64,000 nucleotides of DNA from Candidatus Micrarchaeota archaeon (GTDB taxonomy: Archaea; Micrarchaeota; Micrarchaeia; Micrarchaeales; CABMGC01), in NCBI GenBank assembly GCA_021811535.1, contig JAJZOF010000020.1, forward strand, positions 106,894 to 170,893. The letters are read 5' to 3'. The notes under the pieces are model-generated. The model saw only the letters and a list, made by a program, of their open reading frames with translations. It ran no database searches and was not told where the DNA came from. The translations under genes were made by a program, and so were the position numbers. Positions 14,559-64,000 of this stretch are shown in pieces; within the stretch, counting starts at the first letter, position 1, and every line of letters begins with the position of its first letter.

Positions 14559-15371
14559 TTGAAGGAGACTCAGGAACAGAAAAGGAGGCGACTCCTTGAG
14601 CTTGCAAAGGCGTCAGTAGCCAACACGTACTCGACCGGAGAGCATTCTCTCGTACAGGCGATAAATACTTACAATGAATTGGACAAGGTAAAGAACCTGA
14701 TCCATGAGAAGCTTGAGGAATGGTATGGGATATACTTCCCGGAGCTCCGCTCAGGGAGCATGGCTTCGTACGCCAAGTTTGTAATGGAGTTTGGAAAGGA
14801 GAAGAAGAGCGCTGACAAGGATGGCATCTCCGTGATATTCGGTGCGAAGGAGGGAGAGCGCGTCTTTGAGCAGGCGCAGAAGAGTATAGGCAGGGATCCT
14901 TCAGAAGGCGAGTACGCCATGCTGAGGATGCTTGCCAAGCAGGAGGAAGATATTGAGCACGTCCAGAAGGATCTCGACGCATTCATAAAGGAATCCTGCA
15001 ATGAGAGGATTCCCAACCTTGCTTATTTAGTAGACTACAGGATAGCTGCCGAGCTTCTTGCCAAGGCAGGGTCGTTATCGAAGCTGGCGCTTATGCCTGC
15101 CAGCACCATACAGCTGCTTGGTGCGGAGAAGGCCCTCTTCAAGCATATAAAGTTTGGGAAGAAGCCGCCTAAATATGGCATACTGTTCAAGATGCCTGAG
15201 ATAACAAATGGTAAGCGCGAGTCAAGGGGGAGGATAGCCAGGCTATATGCAACCAAGATAAGTATAGCTGCAAGGGCAGATGCATTCACCAGGAGGTTCA
15301 TAGCCAAGGAGCTTAAAGAAGACATAAATAGAAGGCTTAAGGAGATAGACAGCAGGAAAGGGAGGAGATGA
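14559..15371 (+). CDS. Nop5/Nop56-58-family protein lacking the N-terminal (fibrillarin-binding) domain
   Basis: EEWYGIYFPEL, LLGAEKALFKH...PKYGILF and RGRIARLYATKISIAARAD form the Nop domain. Start set at TTG 14559, because ATGs further upstream overlap the divergent rpiB. Confidence 0.7.
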   Translation: MKETQEQKRRRLLELAKASVANTYSTGEHSLVQAINTYNELDKVKNLIHEKLEEWYGIYFPELRSGSMASYAKFVMEFGKEKKSADKDGISVIFGAKEGERVFEQAQKSIGRDPSEGEYAMLRMLAKQEEDIEHVQKDLDAFIKESCNERIPNLAYLVDYRIAAELLAKAGSLSKLALMPASTIQLLGAEKALFKHIKFGKKPPKYGILFKMPEITNGKRESRGRIARLYATKISIAARADAFTRRFIAKELKEDINRRLKEIDSRKGRR

Positions 15372-15838
15372 CTTTGCGGCGATGCACGCGACTGCAGAGC
15401 GCTATGGAATACCTGATGACGTACGGATGGGCGATACTCCTTGTTGCGATAGCTCTTGGGGCTCTGTGGGAACTAGGATTTTTTGGAAATTCAGCGTCAC
15501 CTGTTTATTGCGACGGCGCTTCCGGATTCGGATGCTCAAATGTGCAGTTATACTCCAATGGTACGATGACGCTGAGCATCATTTATTTTGGAAGCGGCAT
15601 ACTCAATGTTACCGGCTTTTCGTGCACGGAAAGCCCGGTGAAGCCTTATCCTGTGGTGGATACCAATCTGGAGCTGGTTGATGGAAAGTATTACAATGAG
15701 GCTTTTGCATGCCCGATAAGCAATGGCTATGTCGGGGAGCCGTTTTCCGGATACTTATGGGTAACCTATTCTGAAGGAGGCACCACCGGCCTGGTAGAAC
15801 AGTTTGCCACTGTGAGCACAAAGGTTGTTCCGAAATAA
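15368..15838 (+). CDS. Class III signal peptide (pilin-like) protein
   Basis: MTLRRCTRLQSAMEYLMTYGWAILLVAIALGAL. The ATG overlaps the Nop5-like stop (ATGA). Confidence 0.75.
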   Translation: MTLRRCTRLQSAMEYLMTYGWAILLVAIALGALWELGFFGNSASPVYCDGASGFGCSNVQLYSNGTMTLSIIYFGSGILNVTGFSCTESPVKPYPVVDTNLELVDGKYYNEAFACPISNGYVGEPFSGYLWVTYSEGGTTGLVEQFATVSTKVVPK

Positions 15839-15933
15839 AACTCTCTTGCGTGACCATATTTATGGAAAAATTTAATCAAGGTTTATATATCTTTAGAATA
15901 GATAAAACAGAGTAATAGTATTTGGTTGGTATC

Positions 15934-17904
15934 ATGGATAATGGAAGTTTGACCACTGAAGTAGTGGATAAGAATATAGTAGTTAATATAAACAACAAGC
16001 GGCCGGAGATGGATGAGAACAGCGCAGAGACGCTTACGAACCCTGTTCTTGCACCTTACCACAGAACGCTTCAGGAGATAGAGAAGATGCCTGTGCTTGA
16101 GAGGACCAAGACAGTATGCCCTGAATGCAAGCTCATCGTAGATGGAACCATATACAAGGACGGCGAGAATGTCATGATAAGGAAGTACTGCCCGGAACAT
16201 AACTGGACAGTGGAGAAGTACTGGGAAGACTATGATATGTACATGAAGATGAAGAATTACAATTATTACGGAAGGGGATTCGATAACCCTAACTACATAA
16301 ACAAGGGTGAGAACTGCCCGTTCGATTGCGGAATATGTGAGAGGCACAAGTCCCATACTGGATTGGCAAACGTAGTCATAACGAACAGATGCCATCTGAG
16401 CTGCTGGTACTGCTTCTTCTATGCAAAAGAAGGCGAAGCCATCTACGAGCCGACAAGGGATGAACTTAACAAGATATTCTATAACTTAAGGAACCAGAAG
16501 CCCATACCGGCAAATGCCCTGCAGATAACAGGAGGGGAGCCTACGATGAGGGAGGATCTGGTAGAGATAGTCAAGAACGCAAAGGAATCAGGATTTGACC
16601 AGATACAGCTTAATACCACTGGCATAAACCTTGGGCTGAACCCGCAGCAGGCCGTAAGGCTGAGGCATGCAGGCGTGAGCACCTTGTACATGTCATTTGA
16701 CGGTGTGAGCAAGAGGGCGAACCCGAAGAACCACTGGGAGACGCCGATGGCGCTTGAGGCTGCAAAGAAGGCAGGGATAGGTGTCGTACTCGTACCTACT
16801 GTAATAAGGACAGTAAACGATCACGAGCTTGGGGACATAGTGAACTTTGCCCTGAACAACATGGATGTCGTAAAGGCGGTTAATTTCCAGCCTGTCTCAC
16901 TTGTAGGCAGGATGCCGACAAGGCTGAGGGAGAAGCAGAGAATATCAATACCAGGCGCGATAAAACTCATAGAGGAGCAGACAGGAGGGGTCGTCGCAAA
17001 GGAGGACTGGTTCTCGGTACCTTACGTAGGCGGCATAAACAAGTTCATAGAGGCGCTCAGCGGAGAGTACAAGTACGATCTCTCGATACACTTCGCATGC
17101 GGGGCAGGAACCTATCTCTTCGTTGACAAAGACAATAAGATAGTACCTGTGGCGCGCTTCCTTGATATAGTGGGCATGATGGAGAGCCTGCAGAACGCGG
17201 TAAACGAGATGGAAGGAAGGTCCAGAATAGAGAAGAGGATAATAGCTCTTAAGACAGTAGTAGGGCTTAAGAGGTTCATAGACAAGGAGAAGCAGCCTAA
17301 GTCACTTAACTTTGGGAAGCTCTTCGCATCCATAATACTGAAGCATGACTTTGCCACGCTGGGTTCGTTCCAGCTGAAGAGCCTCTTCCTGGGCATGATG
17401 CACTTCCAGGACGAGTATACATACGATATCAAGAGGGTAGAGAAGTGCGACATACATTATGCGATGCCTGATGGGAAGGTTCTTCCTTTCTGCACGTTCA
17501 ATGTATTCCCAGAGGTATACAGGGACAAAGTGCAGAAACAGTACAGCATACCTTCAAAGGAGTGGCAGGAGATGCATTCAGACTGGGGCTACACGAAGGA
17601 TAAGTATACCAGAAACATCAAGGAGCTTGAAGCCAGCGACCTGTACAGGAAGACTTATCAGGGAATGGTAAACTACTTCGCGCTTCCTGTAAATGCAGCT
17701 GAGGCTGCAAGAAGGAAGGCGGAGAAGGGAATATCCGCATACGGAGCTCCACAGAAGACATACGCTGTTGCGGAAAAGAGGCAGGAGGAGCACCAGCATC
17801 ACGAAGAAGCTGCTGAAGGGGACAGTTGCGGGTGCGGAGGAAACTGCGGATGCGGATCTGGCGCAGAAAAGGCTGGAGATTCATGCGGGTGCGGAGGCCA
17901 GTAA
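15934..17904 (+). CDS. Radical SAM enzyme resembling tetraether lipid synthase (Tes / GDGT-MAS family) with a Cys-Gly-rich C-terminal tail
   Basis: N-terminal rubredoxin-like CPEC...CPEH, an extra CPFDCGIC, the radical SAM motif NRCHLSCWYC, and the tail HQHHEE...DSCGCGGNCGCGSG...DSCGCGGQ. Confidence 0.65.
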   Translation: MDNGSLTTEVVDKNIVVNINNKRPEMDENSAETLTNPVLAPYHRTLQEIEKMPVLERTKTVCPECKLIVDGTIYKDGENVMIRKYCPEHNWTVEKYWEDYDMYMKMKNYNYYGRGFDNPNYINKGENCPFDCGICERHKSHTGLANVVITNRCHLSCWYCFFYAKEGEAIYEPTRDELNKIFYNLRNQKPIPANALQITGGEPTMREDLVEIVKNAKESGFDQIQLNTTGINLGLNPQQAVRLRHAGVSTLYMSFDGVSKRANPKNHWETPMALEAAKKAGIGVVLVPTVIRTVNDHELGDIVNFALNNMDVVKAVNFQPVSLVGRMPTRLREKQRISIPGAIKLIEEQTGGVVAKEDWFSVPYVGGINKFIEALSGEYKYDLSIHFACGAGTYLFVDKDNKIVPVARFLDIVGMMESLQNAVNEMEGRSRIEKRIIALKTVVGLKRFIDKEKQPKSLNFGKLFASIILKHDFATLGSFQLKSLFLGMMHFQDEYTYDIKRVEKCDIHYAMPDGKVLPFCTFNVFPEVYRDKVQKQYSIPSKEWQEMHSDWGYTKDKYTRNIKELEASDLYRKTYQGMVNYFALPVNAAEAARRKAEKGISAYGAPQKTYAVAEKRQEEHQHHEEAAEGDSCGCGGNCGCGSGAEKAGDSCGCGGQ

Positions 17905-17931
17905 GCCTATGCGCCCATAGGGTGTCTTTTA

Positions 17932-18618
17932 ATGGATAAGAGAGAAGTGCATAAAGCCAGCGGATTCCTCGAAGACCTTAAGAAGGAAGACGGGAAGGAG
18001 TACAACGACAAGATAACAGAGAATGGGAAGGAGTACAGGGTACCTTACAGGATCGTCAAGGAGATCGTATTCAGAGACGTAAGAAAGGAAGATATGGTAG
18101 ATATAGAGCATGCGGCGAGGCTGCAGTACAGGCTCATGCTCATGGATGCAGTACTGCGTGCAAAGGTAGAATTCAACCATGGCATAATAACCATTGTTTA
18201 CAATAATCCCGAGGCAGAGAACAGGAAGGAGAAGGTAAGCAGAGAGGAGCTTATTGACTTCCTGGCAAAGGAGGGCGTGCATGTGGATGCAGGCTCAGCT
18301 CAGGAAAGGGACTTTGACTATTACAAGGAGATGTATTCTTACCAGTTCAACCCTCCGGTTATAAGGGAGAGGCCTCCTTACGGGTATTCGCAGGAGGAAT
18401 GGAAGAGGATGAAGCCGGAATGGGAGGCTAAGAAGGCGGAGTACGAGAAGAAGAAATGGGAGAAATTCAGGGCTTACCAGGATTCTTATCTGGAGAAGCA
18501 TCCTGAGCTAGCTGCGGAGATGGGAGTCGAGGTAAAGCAGAGAAAGAGGTCTTTGTCTGAGAAGATATTTGGGAGGAAGGGCAAGGATGAGAAGGGTTTC
18601 TGGTTCCACGGAGCCTGA
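17932..18618 (+). CDS. Hypothetical protein (HMA/ferredoxin-like core without CxxC, K/E/W-rich tail)
   Basis: 228 aa, starting 27 nt after the Tes-like gene. AKVEFNHGIITIVYNN...REELIDFLAKEGVHV is a beta-alpha-beta-like pattern. Confidence 0.5.
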   Translation: MDKREVHKASGFLEDLKKEDGKEYNDKITENGKEYRVPYRIVKEIVFRDVRKEDMVDIEHAARLQYRLMLMDAVLRAKVEFNHGIITIVYNNPEAENRKEKVSREELIDFLAKEGVHVDAGSAQERDFDYYKEMYSYQFNPPVIRERPPYGYSQEEWKRMKPEWEAKKAEYEKKKWEKFRAYQDSYLEKHPELAAEMGVEVKQRKRSLSEKIFGRKGKDEKGFWFHGA

Positions 18619-30422: not shown

Positions 30423-32171
30423 ATGCGGAACTACGATGTATCTATACGTATATCCGGGGCGAATGGGGACGGGATAGATTCGATAGGTTTCATGATAGGC
30501 AAGAGCCTGGCAAGGAATGGGTTGTATATATTCGGATACAGGGGTTATCAATCAGTAATAAGGGGCGGGAGCGTATGGTATCAGATAAGGGCGAGCACCG
30601 AAAAACTTTATACGCACGGAGAATACATAGACATACTTATCTCCTTTGATCTGGATGGGATAAAAAACAGCCTGGGTTTCGTGAAGGGCGGCGGGATTGT
30701 GATATATGATTCCAAGACCAATGGGGCTGATGAACTTGCTGCTTCATCAAAAATGGATATAAATTTCGTGAAGCTTCCGCTTCTCGATTCTGCAGTGAAG
30801 AGCGGAGGTGACATATACAGGAATACTGTCGCTTTCGGGATACTATCTAAAATTGTAGGGATAAAGGAAGATTTTGTAATAAAATCCATATCCGACAGAT
30901 TCAAGAAGAAGCCAGGGCTTGTTACGCCTAATGTGACTGCAGCTAAGATAGGATACGAGTTGGACTTGGGCATAGATACCACAAAATTTTACTTCGGAGA
31001 AGAAGGAGAGCCTAAGAGAAGTTATATGCTTAGCGGAAACGAGGCTATAGCGATAGGTGCTGCAGCTGCGGGGTGCAAGTTCTACGCAGCCTATCCAATG
31101 ACTCCTGCAAGCAGCATACTCGACTGGTTTGCATCGCATGAAAACCATGGGATATTATACAAACAGCCTGAGGATGAGATAACAGCAATAAACATGACTA
31201 TTGGAGCGGCGAGTGCAGGTGTGCGCGCGATGTGCGGAACAAGCGGAGGCGGGTTCTCGCTCATGGTCGAGGGTCTGGGGCTTGCTGGAATACTCGAGGT
31301 ACCTATAGTAGTTGTTGAAGCGCAGAGGAGCGGGCCTAGCACAGGGCTTCCAACGAAGACGGAGCAGGGAGACCTTCTCTTTGTCATGAACGCATCACAG
31401 GGTGAATTTCCAAGGGTTATTATAGCTCCAAGGAGCGTGGAGGAGTGCTTTTATGAAACTGGTGCGGCATTTAATATCGCTGAGAAGTACCAGTGCCCTG
31501 TAATAATACTATCGGACCTTTTCCTGTCCGAACATATAGAGAGCGTGAATATAGAACCGGAAAGGGTAAGAATAGAAAGGGGGAAGATAGCCACTGAAAA
31601 GGCAGGCGGAGACTTCAAGAGGTATCTCATTACCGAGGACGGCGTATCTCCAAGGGCTCTTCCCGGGACCAAAGGCCTTGAATTCGTCGCCCCAAGCGAC
31701 GACCACGATGAGTACGGCAACCTTATCACTGATGTTTTTGTTGGAACTCCAGAGGCTGTAGAGCTGCGGAGAAAGATGCACTCTAAGAGGATGAAGAAGC
31801 TCGAGACAATGGTGAAAAACGGCGACATAAAGATGCCTGAAGTTGTCGGTGAGGGAGCCGATGCTTACCTTGTGACCTTCGGCTCTTCGACATATGCATG
31901 CATAGAGGCCGTTGGTCTTCTTAAGGACAAAGGCATTAACGTTGGGATTATATCATTCTCTTACCTTCATCCAATGGATTCCGAGAAGGTAGAGGCGCTT
32001 CTTAGCGGCAAGAGGCTTATCGATGTGGAGAGCAATTATACAGCGCAGTTTGCGCGGCTTATAAGGATGAATACAGGAATAAATATCAAGGAAAGGATAC
32101 TCAGGTACGACGGTGAGGCATTCACCGGAGAGTATTTATGCGCGGAGGTTATGAAAATCCTTAAAGGTTGA
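30423..32171 (+). CDS. 2-oxoacid:ferredoxin oxidoreductase, alpha subunit (fused gamma-alpha type), copy 1
   Basis: 582 aa. Motifs GANGDGIDS, FYAAYPMTPAS, GGGFSLM and GPSTGLPTKTEQGDL. Confidence 0.85.
   Translation: MRNYDVSIRISGANGDGIDSIGFMIGKSLARNGLYIFGYRGYQSVIRGGSVWYQIRASTEKLYTHGEYIDILISFDLDGIKNSLGFVKGGGIVIYDSKTNGADELAASSKMDINFVKLPLLDSAVKSGGDIYRNTVAFGILSKIVGIKEDFVIKSISDRFKKKPGLVTPNVTAAKIGYELDLGIDTTKFYFGEEGEPKRSYMLSGNEAIAIGAAAAGCKFYAAYPMTPASSILDWFASHENHGILYKQPEDEITAINMTIGAASAGVRAMCGTSGGGFSLMVEGLGLAGILEVPIVVVEAQRSGPSTGLPTKTEQGDLLFVMNASQGEFPRVIIAPRSVEECFYETGAAFNIAEKYQCPVIILSDLFLSEHIESVNIEPERVRIERGKIATEKAGGDFKRYLITEDGVSPRALPGTKGLEFVAPSDDHDEYGNLITDVFVGTPEAVELRRKMHSKRMKKLETMVKNGDIKMPEVVGEGADAYLVTFGSSTYACIEAVGLLKDKGINVGIISFSYLHPMDSEKVEALLSGKRLIDVESNYTAQFARLIRMNTGINIKERILRYDGEAFTGEYLCAEVMKILKG
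31221..31291 (+). repeat. 71-nt segment with a single mismatch to 42184-42254 (core of a roughly 320-nt highly similar block between the two OFOR alpha genes)
   Basis: By-eye alignment. The exact 50-nt run agcggaggcgggttctcgctcatggtcgagggtctggggcttgctggaat occurs at 31242-31291 and 42205-42254. Confidence 0.85.
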
Positions 32172-32176
32172 TATTC

Positions 32177-33052
32177 ATGTACACTATGCAGGACTACAAA
32201 TCAAACGTGAAACCGATATTCTGCCCCGGCTGCGGGGATTATGGAGTAGATGCATCCATGCTTAAGGCATTGATGGAACTGCAACTGGATCCCTCAAACA
32301 CAGTAATAGTCTCTGGCATAGGATGCAGCTCGAGCATGCCCCACGATTTTAAGACTTACGGGATACATGGGCTTCATGGACGGGCCCTTCCGCTTGCGGA
32401 AGGAGTACGTCTGGCGAACACGGAGCTCCACGTCATAGTCGCAGGAGGTGATGGCGACGGATACGGCATTGGGCTAAATCACCTGATCCATGCGATACGC
32501 AGGAACCTCAATATCACATATGTCGTCATGAACAATGAGATATACGGTCTTACTACTGGGCAGGCCTCGCCTACAAGCGGGATGGGGCATATTACAAAGT
32601 CTACGCCTTTTGGGGTAATAGAGCGACCAGTAAATCCGTTGTCACTTGCGCTTGCTGCGGGGGCGACTTATGTCGCGCGCGGCTTCTCTGGGGATCCGGT
32701 ACATCTTACGAATCTGATAAAGAATGGTATATTACACAAAGGCTTCGCGCTTGTGGACGTGCAGAGCCCTTGCGTAACGTTCAACAAGATAAACACATAC
32801 GAATGGACTAGGAAGAGGGTCTATAAACTGGAGGAGGCAGGGCATGATCCAAAGGATTTCATGAAGGCGATGGAGAAGGCCGTTGAGTTCCAGCTAAACC
32901 CTGAGAAGTTTCCCATAGGTTTGTTTTATGAGGCAGATGTACCGACATACGAAGAGCAGGAGGAGGCGCTTAAGCAGGGGCCGCTCACAAAACACCAGCT
33001 GCAGAGCATAGAGGACGTCAAGGCTCTTCTTGAGGAGCATTCGGTATTATGA
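32177..33052 (+). CDS. 2-oxoacid:ferredoxin oxidoreductase, beta subunit (TPP-binding), copy 1
   Basis: Motifs FCPGCGDYG, GGDGDGYGIG and MNNEIYGLTTGQ. Confidence 0.85.
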   Translation: MYTMQDYKSNVKPIFCPGCGDYGVDASMLKALMELQLDPSNTVIVSGIGCSSSMPHDFKTYGIHGLHGRALPLAEGVRLANTELHVIVAGGDGDGYGIGLNHLIHAIRRNLNITYVVMNNEIYGLTTGQASPTSGMGHITKSTPFGVIERPVNPLSLALAAGATYVARGFSGDPVHLTNLIKNGILHKGFALVDVQSPCVTFNKINTYEWTRKRVYKLEEAGHDPKDFMKAMEKAVEFQLNPEKFPIGLFYEADVPTYEEQEEALKQGPLTKHQLQSIEDVKALLEEHSVL

Positions 33053-33054
33053 AT

Positions 33055-33155
33055 TCCCGTTGGTGTGAGTCGAACACACAGCCTGTCGGTATCTACTGCC
33101 ATGTTACTGGAAGTGCAAACTACAGCCGACCGCTCTGCCATTGAGCTACAACGGG
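33055..33155 (-). tRNA. tRNA-Tyr (GUA) with a 29-nt intron 3' of position 37
   Basis: Acceptor CCCGTTG/CAACGGG (C1:G72) with discriminator A73. Anticodon stem GTCGG/CCGAC and loop CTGTAG|intron|A, with the intron at 33091-33119. T-arm GTGTG-TTCGACT-CACAC. Confidence 0.85.
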
Positions 33156-40327: not shown

Positions 40328-41026
40328 TTACCTTCCGAACCTGCGTTGCCTGTTGTTATAGTCGTTTAGAGCGTTTGAGAGGTCTTTCTTAGTGAAGTCA
40401 GGCCATAGTTTCTTTGAGAAGTAAAGCTCGGAATATCCAGTCTGCCAGGGCATAAATCCGGAGAGCCTCTTCTCTCCTGAAGTCCTTATTATGAAATCTA
40501 TATTGGGTATCTGGTTCGATATAAGGTGCTTCTCGAACTCCTTCTCTATGTCTTTTATCTTAAGAGTAGCGTGATTTGCAAGGTATTTTACAGAATGAAT
40601 CAGGTCTTCCCTGCCCCCATACCCTATAAGCACGTTTATTATGCCGTCTTTGTATCCCTCTGTCTCCTTCTCGAGCTTGGAGAGGCTGCGTATTAGGTCT
40701 TTTGGCAGCATTTGCCTGTTTCCTATTATCTTGATCCTTGTCTGCGTCTTGTGCAGCCTTGAAGCGAGTGACTTGCTTGTTGCGGCTTTCTTGTAAATGT
40801 AGAAGAGTGCGTTTATCTCCTCCTTCGATCTCTTTATATTTTCCGATGAGAAAGCCCATACGGTTACGTTTCTTATCCCGTAGGCTCTGCACCATTCACT
40901 GAATTCCACGAATTTTTTTACACCGTTGTTGTAGCTTTTTAATATTGAGAGCTTGTGAGCCCGCGCCCACCTCCTGTTGCCGTCGGGTATAATAGCTATG
41001 GTCATGGGGAGCTTCTTTTTTGCCAT
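40328..41026 (-). CDS. uppS: Cis-prenyltransferase (undecaprenyl/di-trans,poly-cis-polyprenyl diphosphate synthase)
   Basis: Motifs IAIIPDGNRRWA, RNVTVWAFSSEN and RTSGEKRLSGF. Confidence 0.9.
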   Translation of the reverse strand: MAKKKLPMTIAIIPDGNRRWARAHKLSILKSYNNGVKKFVEFSEWCRAYGIRNVTVWAFSSENIKRSKEEINALFYIYKKAATSKSLASRLHKTQTRIKIIGNRQMLPKDLIRSLSKLEKETEGYKDGIINVLIGYGGREDLIHSVKYLANHATLKIKDIEKEFEKHLISNQIPNIDFIIRTSGEKRLSGFMPWQTGYSELYFSKKLWPDFTKKDLSNALNDYNNRQRRFGR

Positions 41027-41406
41027 TTTATCAATTGTTTATATAGGGTGTTTAATTAGTTTATTAATATTGCCTTATTTAAAACTTCTTATATATGACT
41101 GTTTGTGTGCCTGTTTGGGACATATAGTATTTTCCAGATTTAATTTTAGCTTTTTGCTGGCTTATGGCTGCGATTCCCTTTTGTAGCTCCTGGTGCTTTC
41201 GCGACTGCGGATCCTTTTTTATTAAACGCGTAAGAAGCCTTTCAGAGTAAACGCAAGTATACTGTCTTGTGATAACTTATCGCATTTGGGCTATGGTCGG
41301 TGTATTTTTTGTCGATGCAGATCTGGATTCGAACGTCAGATGCATAACTCCGCCCCCATGTTTTTTAAAGTGTAGGCTCTAATCAATACCTAGAGCGTTG
41401 TTTATA

Positions 41407-43143
41407 ATGGTTAGCGTTTCTGTTAGGATTGCAGCCGCAAATGGCGACGGAATCGAATCGAGCGGTACGCTGCTTGCCAAGGCAGCTGCAAGGAAAGGAT
41501 TGCATATATTTGGATACAGAGGTTACCAATCGGTAATTCGCGGCGGCCATGTCTGGTTCAGTGTCAGGATAGCTGATGAGAAGATATACGACCATGGGGA
41601 AACGATTGATATACTTGTGGCTCTGAACCAGGATGCGGTAGACCATCAGGCTTCGCATCTTAGCAAAAATGCTTTTGTGATATATGACTCGGGAAAGATA
41701 AAGGTTGACAGGCTTGAGGGAAGAGGATTCAGGCTTCTTCCGATACCGCTCCTTGACATCGCAGTAGAGACAAGCGGCGACCCGATAGTCAGAAATGTAG
41801 TTGCCCTGGGAGCCGTAATGAAGATAACAGGCATAGGGACGGATACGCTGCACCAGATACTAAAGGAGACGTTCGGGAAGAAAGGTGACAAGATAGTCGA
41901 GCAGAATGTCAAGGCGGCGGACAGAGGATACGGATACGAAGGCGTTGAGACTGCATTCAGCCTTAAGTCCGATAATAAGAAGCTTTATGTTATGGATGGA
42001 AACACTGCGTTATCCATAGGTGCATATTCTGCAGGATGTAAGTTCTACGCAGCCTATCCAATGACTCCTGCGAGCAGCATATTGCATTGGTTTGCTGCTC
42101 ATGAGGACAAAGGAGTCTTTGTGAAGCAGACAGAAGATGAGATTGCGGCAATAAACATGACTATCGGAGCGGCGAGCGCCGGCGTGCGCGCGATGTGCGG
42201 AACGAGCGGAGGCGGGTTCTCGCTCATGGTCGAGGGTCTGGGGCTTGCTGGAATGATAGAGGCGCCGATAGTTGTTGTCGAGTCCCAAAGAACGGGGCCT
42301 AGCACAGGGCTTCCTACGAAGACGGAGCAGGGAGACCTTCTCTTTGTCATGAACGCATCGCAGGGGGAGTTCCCTCGCATAGTCGCTGCGCCTAGAGATG
42401 TGGAAGAGTGTTTTTATGTAGGAAAGCAGGCTTTCAACTTGGCAGAGAAGTACCAGTGCCCTGTAGTGATAATGTCAGACCTGTTTCTCTCTGAACATAT
42501 AGAGAGCGTAGAGTCTTTCGATATTGATAGGGTTGGCATAGACAGGGGAAAGATAGCAACTGCTGTTCAAGATGGCAGGTTCAAGAGGTATCTGCTCACT
42601 GAAGACGGCATATCCCCAAGGTCAATACCTGGAACGGCTGGCCTTGAGTTCACAGCTGCGAGTGATGAACATAATGAGTATGGAGACCTAGTAAGCGATG
42701 TTTTATCCGGGATAGATGAGCATGTGGAGATGCGCAACAAGATGCACTCGAAGAGGATGAGGAAGCTCGAGACCATGCTCAAGAATGAGTCCTGCTTTGT
42801 TCCAAGTGTGGAGAGCAGCTCGGGGAGCCACTCGCTCGTATGTTTTGGATCTACAACGGAAGCCTCAAGGGAGGCAGTAAAGATACTAAAATCAAAAGGC
42901 ATAGATGTAGGTTTGATATCGTTCAATTATCTGCTCCCTCTTGACAGGAAGGCGACTACAGATGCGCTGAAGGGAAAGAAGCTGATAGACGTAGAGGTTA
43001 ATTATACTTCGCAACTTGCGCAGATAATAAAGCTGTGCACAGGGATAGATGTGGATTACAAGATAAACAAATACGATGGAGAGGCAATAACTGGAGAGGA
43101 GATTGCCAGGAAAGCAGAACAGATAATTAAAGGTGTAGTGTAA
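41407..43143 (+). CDS. 2-oxoacid:ferredoxin oxidoreductase, alpha subunit, copy 2
   Basis: Paralogue of 30423-32171 with the same motifs. ATG 41407 is preferred over TTG 41398. Confidence 0.85.
   Translation: MVSVSVRIAAANGDGIESSGTLLAKAAARKGLHIFGYRGYQSVIRGGHVWFSVRIADEKIYDHGETIDILVALNQDAVDHQASHLSKNAFVIYDSGKIKVDRLEGRGFRLLPIPLLDIAVETSGDPIVRNVVALGAVMKITGIGTDTLHQILKETFGKKGDKIVEQNVKAADRGYGYEGVETAFSLKSDNKKLYVMDGNTALSIGAYSAGCKFYAAYPMTPASSILHWFAAHEDKGVFVKQTEDEIAAINMTIGAASAGVRAMCGTSGGGFSLMVEGLGLAGMIEAPIVVVESQRTGPSTGLPTKTEQGDLLFVMNASQGEFPRIVAAPRDVEECFYVGKQAFNLAEKYQCPVVIMSDLFLSEHIESVESFDIDRVGIDRGKIATAVQDGRFKRYLLTEDGISPRSIPGTAGLEFTAASDEHNEYGDLVSDVLSGIDEHVEMRNKMHSKRMRKLETMLKNESCFVPSVESSSGSHSLVCFGSTTEASREAVKILKSKGIDVGLISFNYLLPLDRKATTDALKGKKLIDVEVNYTSQLAQIIKLCTGIDVDYKINKYDGEAITGEEIARKAEQIIKGVV
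42184..42254 (+). repeat. 71-nt segment with a single mismatch to 31221-31291
   Basis: See 31221-31291. Confidence 0.85.
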
Positions 43144-44006
43144 TGGCAGGTTATAGTTCTGGAGTCAAGGCGATATTCTGCCCCGGCTGCGGGGATTTTG
43201 GAGTGCAGGCTGCGCTGAATAAGGCATTCATGGACCTGAAGATAGACAAGAGCAATATAGTCATGGTATCGGGTATAGGGTGCAGTTCAAGCATGCCGCA
43301 GGTCTTCGGAGTTTACGGCATACACAGCCTTCATGGCAGGCTTCTCCCTGTGGCATCCGGAGTAAAGCTTGCAAATTCAAAGCTTACTGTTGTAGGCGTA
43401 GGAGGGGACGGCGACGGATATGGGATAGGCAGCGGGCATTTTATACACACGGCAAGGAGGAATCTGGATATCACTTACGTTGTCATGAACAATGAGATAT
43501 ACGGTCTGACTACCGGGCAGGCTTCTCCGACCAGCCTCAGGGGCGCTAAGACCAAATCCACTCCTTTCGGGGATATAGAAAATCCTATCAACCCGATCTC
43601 TCTTGCCATAGCTGCCGGGGCGACTTATGTCGCCAGGGGCTTCTCTGGTGATCCTATGCACATGGCAGAACTCATAAAGAATGGGATCCTGCACAAGGGC
43701 TTCGCGCTTATCGATGTCTTCAGCCCGTGCGTAACGTTCAACAAACTGAACACTTATGAATGGTTTAAGTCTAGGATTTACAGGCTCGATAAGGAAGGCC
43801 ATGATCCTTCAGATATAGGCAAGGCCATGCAGAGAGCGATGGAGACAGAGGTAACCAATTGGGAGAAGGTTCCGATAGGCTTGTTTTATAAGAAGGAAGG
43901 TGAGACATACGAAGACTCTGATATTGTGCTTAAGAACGGGCCCCTCGCAGGGCAGCCCGCGCCCAGCAAGGAGAACGTAATGCAGATACTTGAGGAGAAT
44001 AGATAG
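43143..44006 (+). CDS. 2-oxoacid:ferredoxin oxidoreductase, beta subunit, copy 2
   Basis: Motifs FCPGCGDFG, GGDGDGYGIG and MNNEIYGLTTGQ. The ATG shares one nt with the alpha-subunit stop (TAATG). Confidence 0.85.
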   Translation: MAGYSSGVKAIFCPGCGDFGVQAALNKAFMDLKIDKSNIVMVSGIGCSSSMPQVFGVYGIHSLHGRLLPVASGVKLANSKLTVVGVGGDGDGYGIGSGHFIHTARRNLDITYVVMNNEIYGLTTGQASPTSLRGAKTKSTPFGDIENPINPISLAIAAGATYVARGFSGDPMHMAELIKNGILHKGFALIDVFSPCVTFNKLNTYEWFKSRIYRLDKEGHDPSDIGKAMQRAMETEVTNWEKVPIGLFYKKEGETYEDSDIVLKNGPLAGQPAPSKENVMQILEENR

Positions 44007-45065
44007 GTGTGTTTGCTGTACGGAATAGTTGGTTATGGTGTTTATTTTCCTGTTTACAGGATAAAGGTAGAGGAGATCGCCAATGTATGGCATGAGGATG
44101 CAGAGAGCATAAAGAAAGGGCTTAATATAACTGAAAAGACCGTGCCTGCGATAGATGAGGATGCTGCAACCATAGCGGTCGAAGCTGCACGGAGGGCAGT
44201 ATCGCATGCAGGAATAGACGCCCACGAGATAGGCGCAGTTTATTGCGGCTCGGAATCGCACCCGTATGCTGTAAAGCCTACTTCCACTGTAGTGGCGACT
44301 GCAATAAGCACCGGGAATAATGTCATGGCTGCGGATCTTGAGTTTGCATGCAAGGCTGGTACGGCAGGGATGCAGGTCGCTTTGGGGCTTGCGAAGAGCG
44401 GCATGATAAAGTATGGTTTGGCTGTTGGAAGTGACACATCGCAGGGAAGGCCTGGAGATGCGCTTGAGTACACGGCCAGCGCAGGAGGAGGTGCATATGT
44501 GATAGGAGGGGGAAGGGAGGAGGTGATCGCGGAGATAACGCATACGTTAAGCTTCACTTCGGATACTCCTGACTTCTGGAGGAGAGAAGGCGCTAGTTTC
44601 CCTTCGCATGGAGGCAGGTTTACTGGAGAACCCGGATATTTCAAGCACATAATAGGTGCAACGAATAGGCTTTTTGAGACAACAGGAATGAAGGCATCCG
44701 ATTTTGATTATGCAGTGTTCCATCAGCCGAACGGGAAGTTTCCAATCAATGTGGCTGCGAGGCTGGGATTCGATATGAAGAAGATAGAGAACGGGTTGGT
44801 AACCCCGAAGATAGGAAATACGTATTCAGGTTCATCGATGATAGGGCTCGCCGCCACTCTTGACGTTGCAAAACCTGGAGAGAAGATACTTGTCACAAGC
44901 TTCGGGTCAGGGGCAGGTAGCGATTCATTTGCTATCGAGGTCACGGAGAATATCGAGAAGAAGAGAGAGAGGTCGGTTAAGGTAAGGGACCTCATAGAGA
45001 AGAGGAAGATTTACGTAAATTACTCCGTTTACCTGAAGAACAGAGGTTCCATAAGGAAGAAATGA
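44007..45065 (+). CDS. Hydroxymethylglutaryl-CoA synthase (archaeal type)
   Basis: [20 protein letters not shown] and an EFACKAGT catalytic-Cys context. Starts directly after the OFOR beta stop. Confidence 0.85.
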
Positions 45066-45074
45066 GGTTGTTAA

Positions 45075-46238
45075 TTGAGAGATGTTGCAATAATAGGTAT
45101 AGGCCTTGCAAAATTCGGCGAGCGTTGGGACTGCGGGCTTAAGGAGCTCATGGTCGAAGCAGGGATAGCAGCAATAAGGGATGCGAACCTGAACAGCAAG
45201 GATATAGAGATGATTTATGGTGGGACGATGGCCTCTGGCAGGTTTGTCGGGCAGGAGCATACGGCTGCACTTATGGCAGACCAGCTTGGGCTTCATAACA
45301 TACCTGCAGTGAGGATAGAGAACGCGTGCGCTTCTGGTGGGACGGCGCTGCGCGAGGGATTCATGGCGGTTGCGAGCGGCATGCATGACATAGTTGCAGT
45401 AGGTGGCGTTGAGAAGATGACAGACGTCACTTCTGGAGAGGCTGCTACAGCGCTTGGAGGAGCAGGCGACCAGGAATGGGAGTTATTCCAGGGGATAACT
45501 TTTCCGGGGCTTTATGCGCTTATTGCAAAGAGGCATATGCACGATTACGGCACTACGGAAGAGCAGCTTGCTGCGGTAGCTGTAAAGAATCACCACAATG
45601 CGACGATGAATAAGTACGCCCAGTTCAACAAGGAGATAAGCGTAGGCGAGGTAATGAAGTCAAAGGTTGTCGCTGATCCGCTTAAGCTTCTGGACTGTTC
45701 GCCAATATCTGACGGCGCTGCGGTTGTTATACTGGCTCCGCTTGAGACTGCAAAGAAGTATAATGATACTCCGATAAAGATAAGCGCCAGCGCGCAGGCA
45801 AGCGATACGCTCAGGCTTGCAGACAGGGACAGTCTTGTAGAGCTCAAGGCAACCAAGATTGCCGCGGCAAAGGCCTTTGCCATGGCAAAGACAACCCCAT
45901 CTGCCATAGGAGCAGCAGAGGTCCATGACTGCTTCACCATAGCAGAGATACTTGCTATGGAAGACATCGGTTTCTACAAGAAAGGCACGGCAGCAAAAGC
46001 TGTGGAAGATGGAGAGACGGCAATAGGAGGGAAGATAGCGATAAACACTAGTGGCGGATTGAAAGGATGTGGGCATCCGGTAGGCGCAACAGGTGTAAAG
46101 CAGGCAGTAGAGATAGTTACACAGCTTAGGGGAGAGGCCGGTGGAAGGCAGGTAACTGGGATAGAGAAAGGGCTGACGCACAATGTAGGCGGCAGCGGGG
46201 CTACTGCGGTAGTGCACATATTTGAGAGGTATAATTGA
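45075..46238 (+). CDS. Acetyl-CoA acetyltransferase (thiolase)
   Basis: Motifs VAIIGIGLAKFGE, ENACASGG and NTSGGLKGCGHPVGATG. Confidence 0.9.
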   Translation: MRDVAIIGIGLAKFGERWDCGLKELMVEAGIAAIRDANLNSKDIEMIYGGTMASGRFVGQEHTAALMADQLGLHNIPAVRIENACASGGTALREGFMAVASGMHDIVAVGGVEKMTDVTSGEAATALGGAGDQEWELFQGITFPGLYALIAKRHMHDYGTTEEQLAAVAVKNHHNATMNKYAQFNKEISVGEVMKSKVVADPLKLLDCSPISDGAAVVILAPLETAKKYNDTPIKISASAQASDTLRLADRDSLVELKATKIAAAKAFAMAKTTPSAIGAAEVHDCFTIAEILAMEDIGFYKKGTAAKAVEDGETAIGGKIAINTSGGLKGCGHPVGATGVKQAVEIVTQLRGEAGGRQVTGIEKGLTHNVGGSGATAVVHIFERYN

Positions 46239-63260: not shown

Positions 63261-63952
63261 TTATGGGTGAGAAGGGCCCTGCGAAAGCAGGTTTTGTATA
63301 TGTTAGGGCAGCTGCCATTGAGGATCTGTGCAGGTATGTTTCCCGCTTCGACTTTACTTCGGATAACCTGTTCGCCTCAGAGCTTGAAGGCAAGAGGGTG
63401 GTAATGGCCATAGGCGAGGCTTTCGAGAACAAGGTAATATGCTATTATGTCCCTTATGAGAAGAAGGCAGAGCTCATTGAGTATATGGTTCCGCAGGTAC
63501 ATGGTGAGAAGGAGGCAGCAGTTGCAGTTGAGAGGATAGAAAGGCAGCCGGCGCATTATGTGAATATAATCGATGTAGGGCTTAGGGATATAATCAGGAA
63601 GAAATTCGGGAAGGGTGAGGTTGCGCTGCTGCGTGCTGCAGGACATGAAGACATAGTGCGTGCCTTGGTGAAGAGGGGTATGAGAGACGAATATATAACG
63701 CATATTTACTCCTTTGCATATAAGGGCTTCCGAGTTATAGGGGCATTCGACATTGTTGAGGAGCTGCAGAATGGGAGAAAGGCTTTTTATTATTCGGTTT
63801 CAACCAATAATACAGACGCTGCTTTCGCAAGATACAGCTATATAGATAATCGCGTTGACTTTTCAAAGACATTCGGCGAACATAATTATATGTATGTTAA
63901 GATAATCAACCTTGCAGAACCTTTCCCGTTCTTCGATAATGTGCCCGCTTAG
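63257..63952 (+). CDS. Hypothetical cytoplasmic protein
   Basis: 231-aa ORF that overlaps the upstream stop by 4 nt. I recognise no family. Its stop overlaps the tRNA-Asn 5' end by 10 nt. Confidence 0.45.
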   Translation: MIMGEKGPAKAGFVYVRAAAIEDLCRYVSRFDFTSDNLFASELEGKRVVMAIGEAFENKVICYYVPYEKKAELIEYMVPQVHGEKEAAVAVERIERQPAHYVNIIDVGLRDIIRKKFGKGEVALLRAAGHEDIVRALVKRGMRDEYITHIYSFAYKGFRVIGAFDIVEELQNGRKAFYYSVSTNNTDAAFARYSYIDNRVDFSKTFGEHNYMYVKIINLAEPFPFFDNVPA

Positions 63953-64000
63953 CTCAGTGGTAGAGCGCCTGGCTGTTAACCAGGAAGTCGCAGGTTCAAT
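63943..64000 (+). tRNA. tRNA-Asn (GUU), 3'-truncated by the window edge
   Basis: GCCCGCT-TA-GCTC-AGTGGTA-GAGC-G-CCTGG-CTGTTAA-CCAGG-AAGTC-GCAGG-TTCAAT... Confidence 0.8.

Follow-up and report, generated by a model that had tools for sequence, protein, structure and literature searches.

Tetraether lipid synthase of Micrarchaeota with a cysteine-rich C-terminal tail and a conserved downstream gene of predicted HMA fold

We analyzed a 64,000-nucleotide (nt) stretch of DNA from Candidatus Micrarchaeota archaeon (contig JAJZOF010000020.1, positions 106,894 to 170,893 of the forward strand), referred to below as the window. Two adjacent genes are the subject of this study. The first, tes, encodes a tetraether lipid synthase (Tes, also known as GDGT-MAS), a radical S-adenosylmethionine (SAM) enzyme that ends here in a tail rich in histidine and cysteine. 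The second, which we call p228 after the length of its product, is unannotated. An original prediction, made from the letters of the window, had drawn attention to the enzyme and its tail; p228, which resembles metallochaperones of the HMA type, was absent from it, and we consider this neighbor the more informative feature of the two.

Results

The tes-p228 locus

The features of the locus are collected in Table 1. Residues of Tes are counted from the ATG at 15934, the start used by public gene callers, and an identical protein has been called on 13 public contigs. We compared the locus with the 80 best related loci in GTDB species representatives, almost all of them labeled Micrarchaeota, Micrarchaeaceae or Micrarchaeia; at least 568 Micrarchaeota tes loci were detected. 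A p228 homolog lies directly downstream of tes on the same strand at 76 of the 80 loci. The exceptions are one locus with p228 on the opposite strand and three without the gene, at least two of which end at a contig end. The spacer between the two genes has a median length of 23.5 nt, and the other neighbors of tes are not fixed.

Table 1 Features of the tes-p228 locus (window positions).
Feature	Position	Strand	Basis or remark
TTTATATA, candidate archaeal TATA box	15882..15889	+	By eye; ~45 nt upstream of the tes start
tes, tetraether lipid synthase (Tes/GDGT-MAS), 656 amino acids (aa)	15934..17904	+	ATG start; alternative TTG at 15922
Rubredoxin-like Fe domain, residues 56-98	16099..16227	+	Pfam Zn_ribbon_HMPTM, residues 54-98; 7TOL alignment
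N-terminal auxiliary [4Fe-4S] motif CPFDCGICERH	16315..16347	+	7TOL alignment and published ligand numbering
Radical SAM domain, residues 147-306	16372-16851	+	Pfam PF04055, E 3e-24
Radical SAM CX3CX2C motif CHLSCWYC (C153, C157, C160)	16390..16413	+	Codons read directly
C-terminal auxiliary [4Fe-4S] region: C389, M489, C505, Y509, C520	17098..17493	+	7TOL alignment
Helical C-terminal extension, residues 553-604	17590..17745	+	Beyond the end of the MJ0619 structure
Ala/Lys/Glu-rich low-complexity linker, residues 605-619	17746..17790	+	pLDDT <40; unalignable between homologs, length variable
Tail HQHHEEAAEGDSCGCGGNCGCGSGAEKAGDSCGCGGQ, residues 620-656	17791..17901	+	HQHHEE His/acid patch, then three S/N-CGCG modules
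Direct repeat TGCGGGTGCGGAGG (14 nt), copy 1	17827..17840	+	Encodes C-G-C-G-G
Direct repeat TGCGGGTGCGGAGG (14 nt), copy 2	17884..17897	+	Encodes C-G-C-G-G
p228, unannotated, 228 aa	17932..18618	+	27 nt past the tes stop codon
HMA-type ferredoxin-fold domain of p228, ~residues 40-130	18049..18321	+	Model and profile
D57-x-x-H60 of p228, in place of CxxC	18100-18111	+	D57 78%, H60 84% conserved
C-terminal KGFWFHGA motif of p228, residues 221-228	18592..18615	+	Column frequencies, 102 homologs

By eye, the 27-nt spacer in the window contains no element comparable to the TATA-like sequence upstream of tes. Two hairpin-plus-T candidates for a terminator between the genes, at 17906-17925, did not exceed the expectation from shuffled sequence. 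The two genes share a frame in the window, and a fusion of their products by stop-codon read-through was also considered. We rejected it because the spacers show no frame bias: among 72 of them, 19 keep the frame and 23 and 30 fall in the other two frames. Just upstream of tes lies an open reading frame (ORF) of 156 aa (15368-15838, + strand) that begins ...RLQSAMEYLMTYGWAILLVAIALGAL and has no Pfam match. This RLQSAMEYLMTYGWAILLVAIALGAL sequence looks by eye like an archaeal type IV pilin-like (class III) signal peptide, and the position of the ORF beside tes is not conserved.

A tetraether lipid synthase with its four metal sites

The first gene almost certainly encodes a member of the Tes/GDGT-MAS family, an assignment as firm as sequence allows. 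The protein scores 666.5 bits against the NCBIfam equivalog for Tes (NF045702, cut-off 450), with residues 58-540 matching profile positions 2-485 of 486, and its residues 56-552 align with the GDGT-MAS of M. jannaschii (PDB 7TOL) at 39% identity (E 6e-127). The AlphaFold2 (AF2) model, built on 95 homologs, matches 7TOM with a target-normalized template modeling (TM) score of 0.83 (E 1.2e-39) over 503 columns. No other close structure than 7TOL/7TOM has been solved, and the second-best structural match, MoaA, reaches a TM score of 0.44.

As in MJ0619 (the M. jannaschii enzyme of 7TOL/7TOM) and MA_1486, the protein contains in order a rubredoxin-like iron site, an N-terminal [4Fe-4S] site, the radical SAM core with its partial TIM barrel and a C-terminal [4Fe-4S] site. 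We took the ligand numbering from PMC9433317 and scored conservation in the alignment of 95 homologs (A2). The rubredoxin-like iron would be held by C62, C65, C86 and H89, equivalent to C9, C12, C33 and H36 of MJ0619, and the N-terminal cluster by C128, C132, C135 and H138, equivalent to C73, C77, C80 and a conserved His. C389, C505 and C520 presumably ligate the C-terminal cluster. M489 aligns with the labile Met439 of MJ0619 and Y509 with Tyr459, both of which Lloyd et al. 2022 (PMC9433317) describe as universally conserved in GDGT-MAS. All mapped metal-site residues and Y509 are invariant in the alignment, H89 alone being conserved at a level of at least 90%.

The original prediction had recognized a Tes-family enzyme from the motifs CPEC...CPEH, CPFDCGIC and CHLSCWYC. 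All three are present, at C62-H89, C128-C135 and C153-C160, and the alignment with characterized enzymes that it called for placed the four sites with their ligands conserved, in full agreement with its assignment. Competing labels fit poorly. The TrsS model (NF045646) gives 302.5 bits against a cut-off of 490 and covers residues 57-359 only; the model of intein-containing Tes (NF045703) gives 652.6 bits against a cut-off of 1700, and this 656-aa protein has no intein. Some homologs are labeled MoaA, whose models reach 70-72 bits against cut-offs of 231-325, and others '7,8-dihydro-6-hydroxymethylpterin dimethyltransferase', a label that we set aside in favor of Tes.

The enzyme is predicted to be functional. 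It would couple the ends of two phytanyl chains, converting diether lipids into membrane-spanning tetraethers, and would do so with three [4Fe-4S] clusters and one rubredoxin-like iron, 13 iron atoms in all. In GDGT-MAS the reaction passes through a covalent C-S(cluster) intermediate between the substrate and one of the clusters, and the rubredoxin domain and N-terminal cluster lie at the protein surface, where they are thought to tune electron transfer (PMC9433317).

Compared with MJ0619 and MA_1486, the Micrarchaeota enzymes have additional N- and C-terminal extensions, a disordered linker, the His/CxC tail and the downstream partner gene. The N-terminal extension comprises ~55 residues that are absent from MJ0619; at residues 37-60 (16042-16113) it includes the stretch A40-P41-Y42-H43-R44, which is nearly invariant. 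The helical C-terminal extension is modeled with a predicted local distance difference test (pLDDT) score of ~83-96 over residues 561-600, and D556-K557-Y558-x-R560...Y571...Y575...F582 are invariant in A2. A helical extension of this kind, ~50 residues long, is also found in Thermococcus Tes (P0241).

A cysteine-rich tail in most Micrarchaeota species

Beyond the helical extension the model loses confidence, and residues 602-656 are predicted to be disordered (pLDDT ~30). The tail HQHHEEAAEGDSCGCGGNCGCGSGAEKAGDSCGCGGQ holds six Cys as three CGC doublets. Both the six paired Cys and the 14-nt direct repeat reported in the original prediction are there, at the positions given for the repeat (17827 and 17884). 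The repeat TGCGGGTGCGGAGG occurs exactly twice in the window; shuffled sequences contained on average 0.03 matches, and 0 of 100 shuffles had two.

The original prediction had presented the tail as a peculiarity of this copy. It is not: counting as tailed any protein with at least four Cys within the last 70 residues, we found tails in 52 of the 80 Micrarchaeota species, no Cys there in 27 and a single Cys in one. About three quarters of the 120 closest database homologs of Tes have a comparable tail. The survey of homologs that the prediction had proposed was therefore positive, and of its own caveat, that CGCG tails might turn out to be common and already annotated, only the first half came true. 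We found no description of a Cys tail on Tes in the searchable literature, in keeping with its statement that none was known for the family.

The tails vary in length and share a composition (Table 1 gives the example from the window). The 52 tailed proteins have 4-10 Cys, most commonly 7 or 8, arranged in two to five CxC doublets. These doublets hold 335 of the 355 tail Cys (94%), and 124 of 170 are CGC. The median Cys module is 30 residues long; Gly accounts for 35%, Cys for 24% and Ser for 11% of the residues in these modules, and no aromatic residue is among the ten commonest. The last Cys stands at most three residues from the C-terminus in 50 of 52 tails and is itself the terminal residue in 29; endings are ...GC, ...NC or ...DC (for example ...SCGC, ...SCNC, ...NCDC), others being CGGQ, CGGA, CGGH and CGGM. 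The stretch after the conserved xPVN motif is 38-108 residues long, and the length of the Ala-rich linker varies greatly. The Cys doublets persist while this adjoining linker cannot be aligned. Windows of 12 residues with at least three His occur in 15 of the 52 tailed proteins and in none of the 28 untailed ones. With its CxC-rich cysteines, few or no aromatic residues and predicted disorder, the tail has the sequence hallmarks of the metallothionein/SlyD-like class.

In a neighbor-joining tree built from the catalytic core, proteins with and without a tail are intermingled. The untailed ones form at least seven separate groups, including the Mancarchaeum type, and the deepest Micrarchaeota branch is tailed. 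From this pattern we conclude that the tail is typical of the Micrarchaeota lineage and has been lost or gained repeatedly; on the same grounds, it is an old feature that selection maintains wherever it is kept and that catalysis does not require. The ending also appears specific to the enzyme and is not a product of chance: when ~1 Mb of Micrarchaeota DNA was surveyed for stop-to-stop ORFs of 80 aa or longer (4,212 in all), Tes was the only real gene with two or more CxC in its last 50 residues. A query with the tail alone matched nothing in a word-indexed protein search or in phmmer against the PDB, probably because it is short and of low complexity.

A downstream gene with a predicted HMA fold

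We found 286 homologs of p228. No Pfam domain is assigned to the 120 that were listed, and the names they bear are all 'hypothetical' except for a single JGI label. Searches of Pfam and NCBIfam with p228 and five homologs gave no meaningful match, the HMA model included, even at E-values up to 10. The AF2 model of p228 (pLDDT 83) consists of a beta-alpha-beta-beta-alpha-beta domain, a long helix and a short C-terminal segment. The top 18 Foldseek matches in the PDB are all HMA domains, among them those of CopA, ATP7A/ATP7B, RAN1/HMA7, ZiaA, Atx1, CsoZ, CopZ and MerP, with target-normalized TM scores of 0.40-0.79, most of them 0.57-0.79. A profile of the p228 family also matches the HMA domains of B. 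subtilis CopA (E 6.5e-7), and in that alignment GMTCAAC of CopA is paired with ELIDIEH.

By model and profile, p228 is a protein of the HMA, or metallochaperone, fold without its cysteines: fold and sequence similarity are both detected, and the GMxCxxC metal loop is missing. Of 102 family members, 89 contain no Cys at all. The D57-x-x-H60 that replaces CxxC lies on the same helix as R63, Q65, Y66 and R67 (RxQYR), which are invariant in the family. The second conserved element is the C-terminal motif, in which K221, F223, W224, F225, H226 and G227 are each at least 95% conserved and G222 is 89% conserved across the 102 homologs, the range over the whole motif being 89-98%.

The tail and the p228 motif vary together

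At 74 loci both genes are complete, and we used these to compare the tail of Tes with the KGFWFHG motif of p228. Tail and motif are both present at 47 loci and both absent at 18; the tail occurs without the motif at two and the motif without the tail at seven (Fisher exact p = 1e-9, with loci counted as independent of phylogeny). Placed on the Tes tree, p228 genes without the motif fall in five separate tail-less groups and never in crown tailed lineages; the two tailed loci lacking the motif are the deepest branch (L069/L070). The tail and p228 thus appear to co-evolve. Since p228 with the motif exists beside untailed Tes and crown tailed lineages without the motif do not, the motif seems to become dispensable once the tail is lost, as expected if it serves the tail. 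The DxxH variants of p228 showed no association with tail state.

A Micrarchaeota chromosomal gene

Whether DPANN archaea such as these encode their own lipid-modifying enzymes bears on the assumption that they scavenge lipids. Zeng et al. 2022 (PMC8941075) found Tes homologs in DPANN metagenome-assembled genomes and suspected them of coming from hosts. That the source of the window is a DPANN archaeon, a possibility raised in the original prediction, is upheld by the Micrarchaeota labels of the related loci. The protein is 99% identical to Tes on contig JAJZKO010000002.1 (Candidatus Micrarchaeota archaeon isolate MAS1.bin30). Around tes lie genes for RpiB, Nop56/58, glycyl-tRNA synthetase, OGG, diphthamide synthase and ribosomal protein L10e, and the window also encodes the L3-L4-L2-L22-S3 ribosomal cluster, primase, eRF1 and pyruvate kinase. 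Micrarchaeota Tes forms its own clade in at least 80 species; the nearest relatives outside it, for example the intein-containing Thermococcus Tes and Bathyarchaeia Tes, are ~50% identical. Judged by the housekeeping genes and ribosomal cluster on the same contig, tes is a chromosomal gene of Micrarchaeota and no host contamination. Micrarchaeota therefore appear to encode a Tes of their own, and this chromosomal context counters the suspicion of a host origin.

A few records that look mislabeled ('bacterium', 'Candidatus Acidoferrum sp.', 'Acidiferrales bacterium' and 'Methanothrix sp.'; L021, L043, L053 and P0055) carry a Micrarchaeota-type Tes at 72-76% identity, and L021, L043 and L053 also have p228. 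They are probably mis-binned or mislabeled contigs.

For Ca. Micrarchaeum harzensis, Krause et al. 2022 (PMC8975820) reported incomplete mevalonate and lipid pathways and co-culture membranes with 97% GDGT-0, a glycerol dialkyl glycerol tetraether (GDGT) that may be of either symbiont or host origin. In the window, a gene resembling HMG-CoA synthase (44007-45065, +) adjoins a thiolase gene (45075-46238, +), which together would provide the first two steps of the mevalonate pathway, and a cis-prenyltransferase of the UPPS family lies at 40328-41026 (-). The genome therefore seems to keep at least part of isoprenoid synthesis, which bears on whether Micrarchaeota make lipids or merely remodel them.

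Tes loci outside Micrarchaeota and other features of the window

Tails are rare among 150 diverse Tes representatives (a library clustered at 50% identity). They recur in P0244 (...GGCCGG...GCCGG...GGCGC) and in P0314 (...SCGSGCGCH). In Thermococcus, a 101-aa DUF3213 protein (L089:6140-6445; a homolog of P. furiosus PF1455, PDB 2F40) is encoded 11 nt downstream of the intein-containing Tes and may be another lineage-specific small partner. Homology between it and p228 was rejected, hhalign giving a probability of 0.6%. A distant Tes (P0254, L091:1-2003) lies ~1 kb from a CarS-like CDP-archaeol synthase gene and ~3 kb from a CDP-alcohol phosphatidyltransferase gene, a lipid-gene neighborhood that is absent from the Micrarchaeota loci.

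The window also contains two subunit pairs of 2-oxoacid:ferredoxin oxidoreductases (POR/POR_N and TPP_enzyme_C/PFO_beta_C), at 30423-33052 (+) and 41398-44006 (+). They imply ferredoxin-based electron flow, which could feed radical SAM enzymes. A 101-nt tRNA at 33055-33155 (-), called by Rfam and absent from the ARAGORN output, is probably an intron-containing archaeal tRNA; a further tRNA, at 63943-64000 (+), is cut off by the end of the window.

Discussion

The enzyme described here is a new member of a known family, and its tail and partner gene are an undescribed, lineage-specific variant. How the two might serve the enzyme can be framed as follows. The tail would be a metal-binding arm of the metallothionein/SlyD type, tethered to Tes; the product of p228, which we presume to be co-transcribed, would work with it; and together they would load, maintain or protect the iron and iron-sulfur cofactors of the enzyme. 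A metallothionein-like tail, an enzyme with 13 irons, a covalent C-S intermediate and a co-evolving partner of HMA fold make a tethered metal arm the most economical reading, and we consider its chances, taken as a whole, to be about even. Its parts differ in strength. By analogy with known tails, it is somewhat probable that the tail binds metal. That the tail and p228 act together, as their pattern of conservation suggests, we hold to be evenly balanced. That the purpose is supply or repair of iron and iron-sulfur cofactors, rather than protection from thiophilic metals, is a tentative proposal that we think less likely than not. The original prediction had seen in the tail an element for delivering or storing metal or Fe-S; such a role would gain indirect support from the composition, which resembles SlyD and metallothioneins, from the His runs and from the co-evolution with a neighbor of HMA fold. 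The identity of the metal, a contact between p228 and the tail, and the purpose of cofactor supply or repair are points that we infer. A more detailed version is more speculative still: the two components would form a self-contained cofactor-maintenance module, in which the tail is a tethered reservoir of iron or iron-sulfur units that p228 loads and unloads through its KGFWFHG motif and RxQYR helix. Such a module would keep a 13-iron radical SAM enzyme active in a symbiont with a reduced genome.

Several known systems offer partial parallels. Metallothioneins share with the tail a Cys content of ~24%, the dominance of CxC, the scarcity or absence of aromatic residues and the lack of predicted structure in the apo form; whereas metallothioneins are free proteins, the Tes tail is attached to an enzyme as an appendage of 30 residues, and its metal binding is a prediction. 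The copper chaperone CCS pairs an HMA domain with a C-terminal CxC tail. At the tes-p228 locus the same two elements are found, but the tail is on the client enzyme instead of the chaperone. CopZ/Atx1, CopA and the N-terminal domains of ATP7B share the HMA fold with p228, and its homology to CopA is detectable; in p228, however, D-x-x-H stands in the place of GMxCxxC, and a long helix and the KGFWFHG C-terminus have been added. In the radical SAM enzyme LipA, a sacrificial auxiliary cluster is regenerated with the help of NfuA or IscU. The comparison of LipA with Tes is one of concept only: in both radical SAM enzymes an auxiliary cluster is itself a chemical participant in the reaction, and by this analogy a dedicated cluster-supply partner for Tes would be plausible. 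Unlike the cluster of LipA, that of Tes is not known to be consumed, and p228 is unrelated to Nfu or IscU. In SlyD, finally, Ni2+ and Zn2+ are bound by a C-terminus rich in His and Cys, which has a part in the maturation of metalloenzymes (PMC3292732). In SlyD of E. coli and H. pylori, as in Tes, a disordered tail rich in His, Cys, Gly and acidic residues follows a folded protein. The chaperone SlyD, a prolyl isomerase of the FKBP type, is a protein apart from its client hydrogenase, whereas the Tes tail is fused to the metalloenzyme itself; it is also dominated by CGC doublets, has fewer His and shows no sequence homology.

Other Tes lineages lend the tethered-arm reading weak independent support, by analogy. 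Directly downstream of the P0244 gene, which contains an intein and encodes a SlyD-like tail (CCGG...CCGG...GGCGC), lie genes for a ferredoxin and a DUF1858/Fe-S_biosyn (IscA-type) protein (L088:256-4770), and in one further lineage a ferredoxin and a DUF59 protein are encoded 3.4 kb upstream of tes.

A number of observations weigh against this reading. Iron-sulfur-related neighbors occur at just 2 of 10 Tes loci outside Micrarchaeota, one of the loci being on a 2.3-kb contig with hardly any flank; with the other eight lacking such neighbors, we rejected a general link between Tes and Fe-S carrier genes. Within Micrarchaeota, the absence of the tail from 27 of 80 species, at seven or more separate places on the tree, means that catalysis does not need it. 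The wide variation in Cys number and spacing is easier to reconcile with a loose metal sponge than with a defined site. A search of the Tes core for a docking site, as positions that vary with the tail, returned a single conservative V/I position. As for p228, it may bind no metal, given that both HMA cysteines are lost and that their replacements D57 and H60 are conserved at 78% and 84%. It is also present where Tes is untailed, for instance in the Mancarchaeum type, and this persistence argues for a core role independent of the tail. The p value for co-variation is uncorrected for phylogeny and rests on a neighbor-joining tree without support values, and the coupling could be imitated if streamlined lineages had trimmed both disordered C-termini in parallel.

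Another possibility is that the tail is a near-neutral, low-complexity expansion produced by replication slippage, with no specific function. Its repeated loss or gain, its highly variable length and copy number, the exact 14-nt repeats within it and the lack of co-variation in the Tes core would all be expected of such an expansion. It is hard to see, though, why 94% of the tail Cys should then remain in CxC across lineages whose catalytic cores are only 67-81% identical to that of the enzyme studied here and whose linkers cannot be aligned, why the ending is restricted to Tes among the 4,212 ORFs surveyed, or why the presence of the tail predicts the retention of an unrelated motif in a different protein. 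The tailed deepest branch and the independent origin of short Cys tails in other Tes lineages point the same way, and we regard neutral expansion as unlikely. Slightly less likely, in our view, is protection: the tail would soak up thiophilic metals (Cu, Zn, Cd, As) as a sacrificial sponge and shield the exposed Fe-S sites of Tes in metal-rich habitats, with no part in supplying iron. The metallothionein-like composition and the surface location of the rubredoxin domain and N-terminal cluster in GDGT-MAS (PMC9433317) suit this role, but other Fe-S enzymes encoded in the same DNA, such as the 2-oxoacid:ferredoxin oxidoreductases, have no such tail, and the acidophile Mancarchaeum is among the tail-less lineages.

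The tail could instead hold an extra redox cofactor, which might be a small Fe-S cluster or an Fe(Cys)4 site of the rubredoxin type. It would then be an entry point for electrons, a tethered ferredoxin reducing the radical SAM cluster in an organism that has few electron carriers. The pairing of the Cys, a commonest count of eight that makes two sets of four, the electron-transfer role proposed for the surface rubredoxin domain and N-terminal cluster (PMC9433317) and the ferredoxin gene directly downstream of the tailed P0244 gene are in its favor. Yet neither the number of Cys (4-10) nor the spacing of the doublets (2-23 residues) is conserved, the tail is predicted to be fully disordered and has been lost repeatedly, and runs of His with patches of acidic residues are what one expects in metal-storage tails rather than in motifs that bind clusters; moreover, the two oxidoreductases in the window make it probable that the organism has a ferredoxin-type electron carrier already. 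We therefore judge this role improbable, on a par with the sponge. Least likely of all is a membrane anchor, in which the terminal Cys would be prenylated or acylated and the FWF of p228 would form a second interfacial anchor. The CXC ends of Rab GTPases are lipid-modified in this way, and prenyl diphosphates are available in archaea. A Cys is the very last residue in 29 of 52 tails, closing a CxC doublet in those listed, the substrate of Tes is a membrane lipid, and KGFWFHG is rich in residues typical of membrane interfaces. To our knowledge, however, no protein prenyltransferase or Rab-type machinery is known from archaea, and the genes identified in the window include neither. Anchoring would also leave the several CxC doublets inside the tail, its acidic residues and its runs of His without a purpose, and if the two anchors were redundant, the loss of one should raise the constraint on the other, whereas tail and motif are lost together.

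If tail and p228 do form the self-contained maintenance module outlined above, no earlier dedicated metallochaperone system would be on record for a radical SAM enzyme that modifies lipids, and p228 would represent a new use of the HMA fold, with Asp and His replacing Cys. A tethered tail with an HMA-derived partner would be a new way to service a radical SAM enzyme with several clusters, and the two could improve heterologous expression and reconstitution of Tes. The family of p228, with 286 members so far called hypothetical, can now be assigned a fold and a genomic context, along with a role open to testing.

For the organisms themselves, the housekeeping genes on the same contig, the separate clade in at least 80 species and the lineage-specific partner gene suggest that Micrarchaeota retain the last step of tetraether synthesis in spite of a lipid pathway reported as incomplete. 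The presence of tes in these genomes is not in itself new; its retention in this setting is of biological interest. It makes directly testable the question of whether Micrarchaeota turn scavenged diethers into GDGTs themselves, and it affects how environmental GDGT pools are assigned to their producers.

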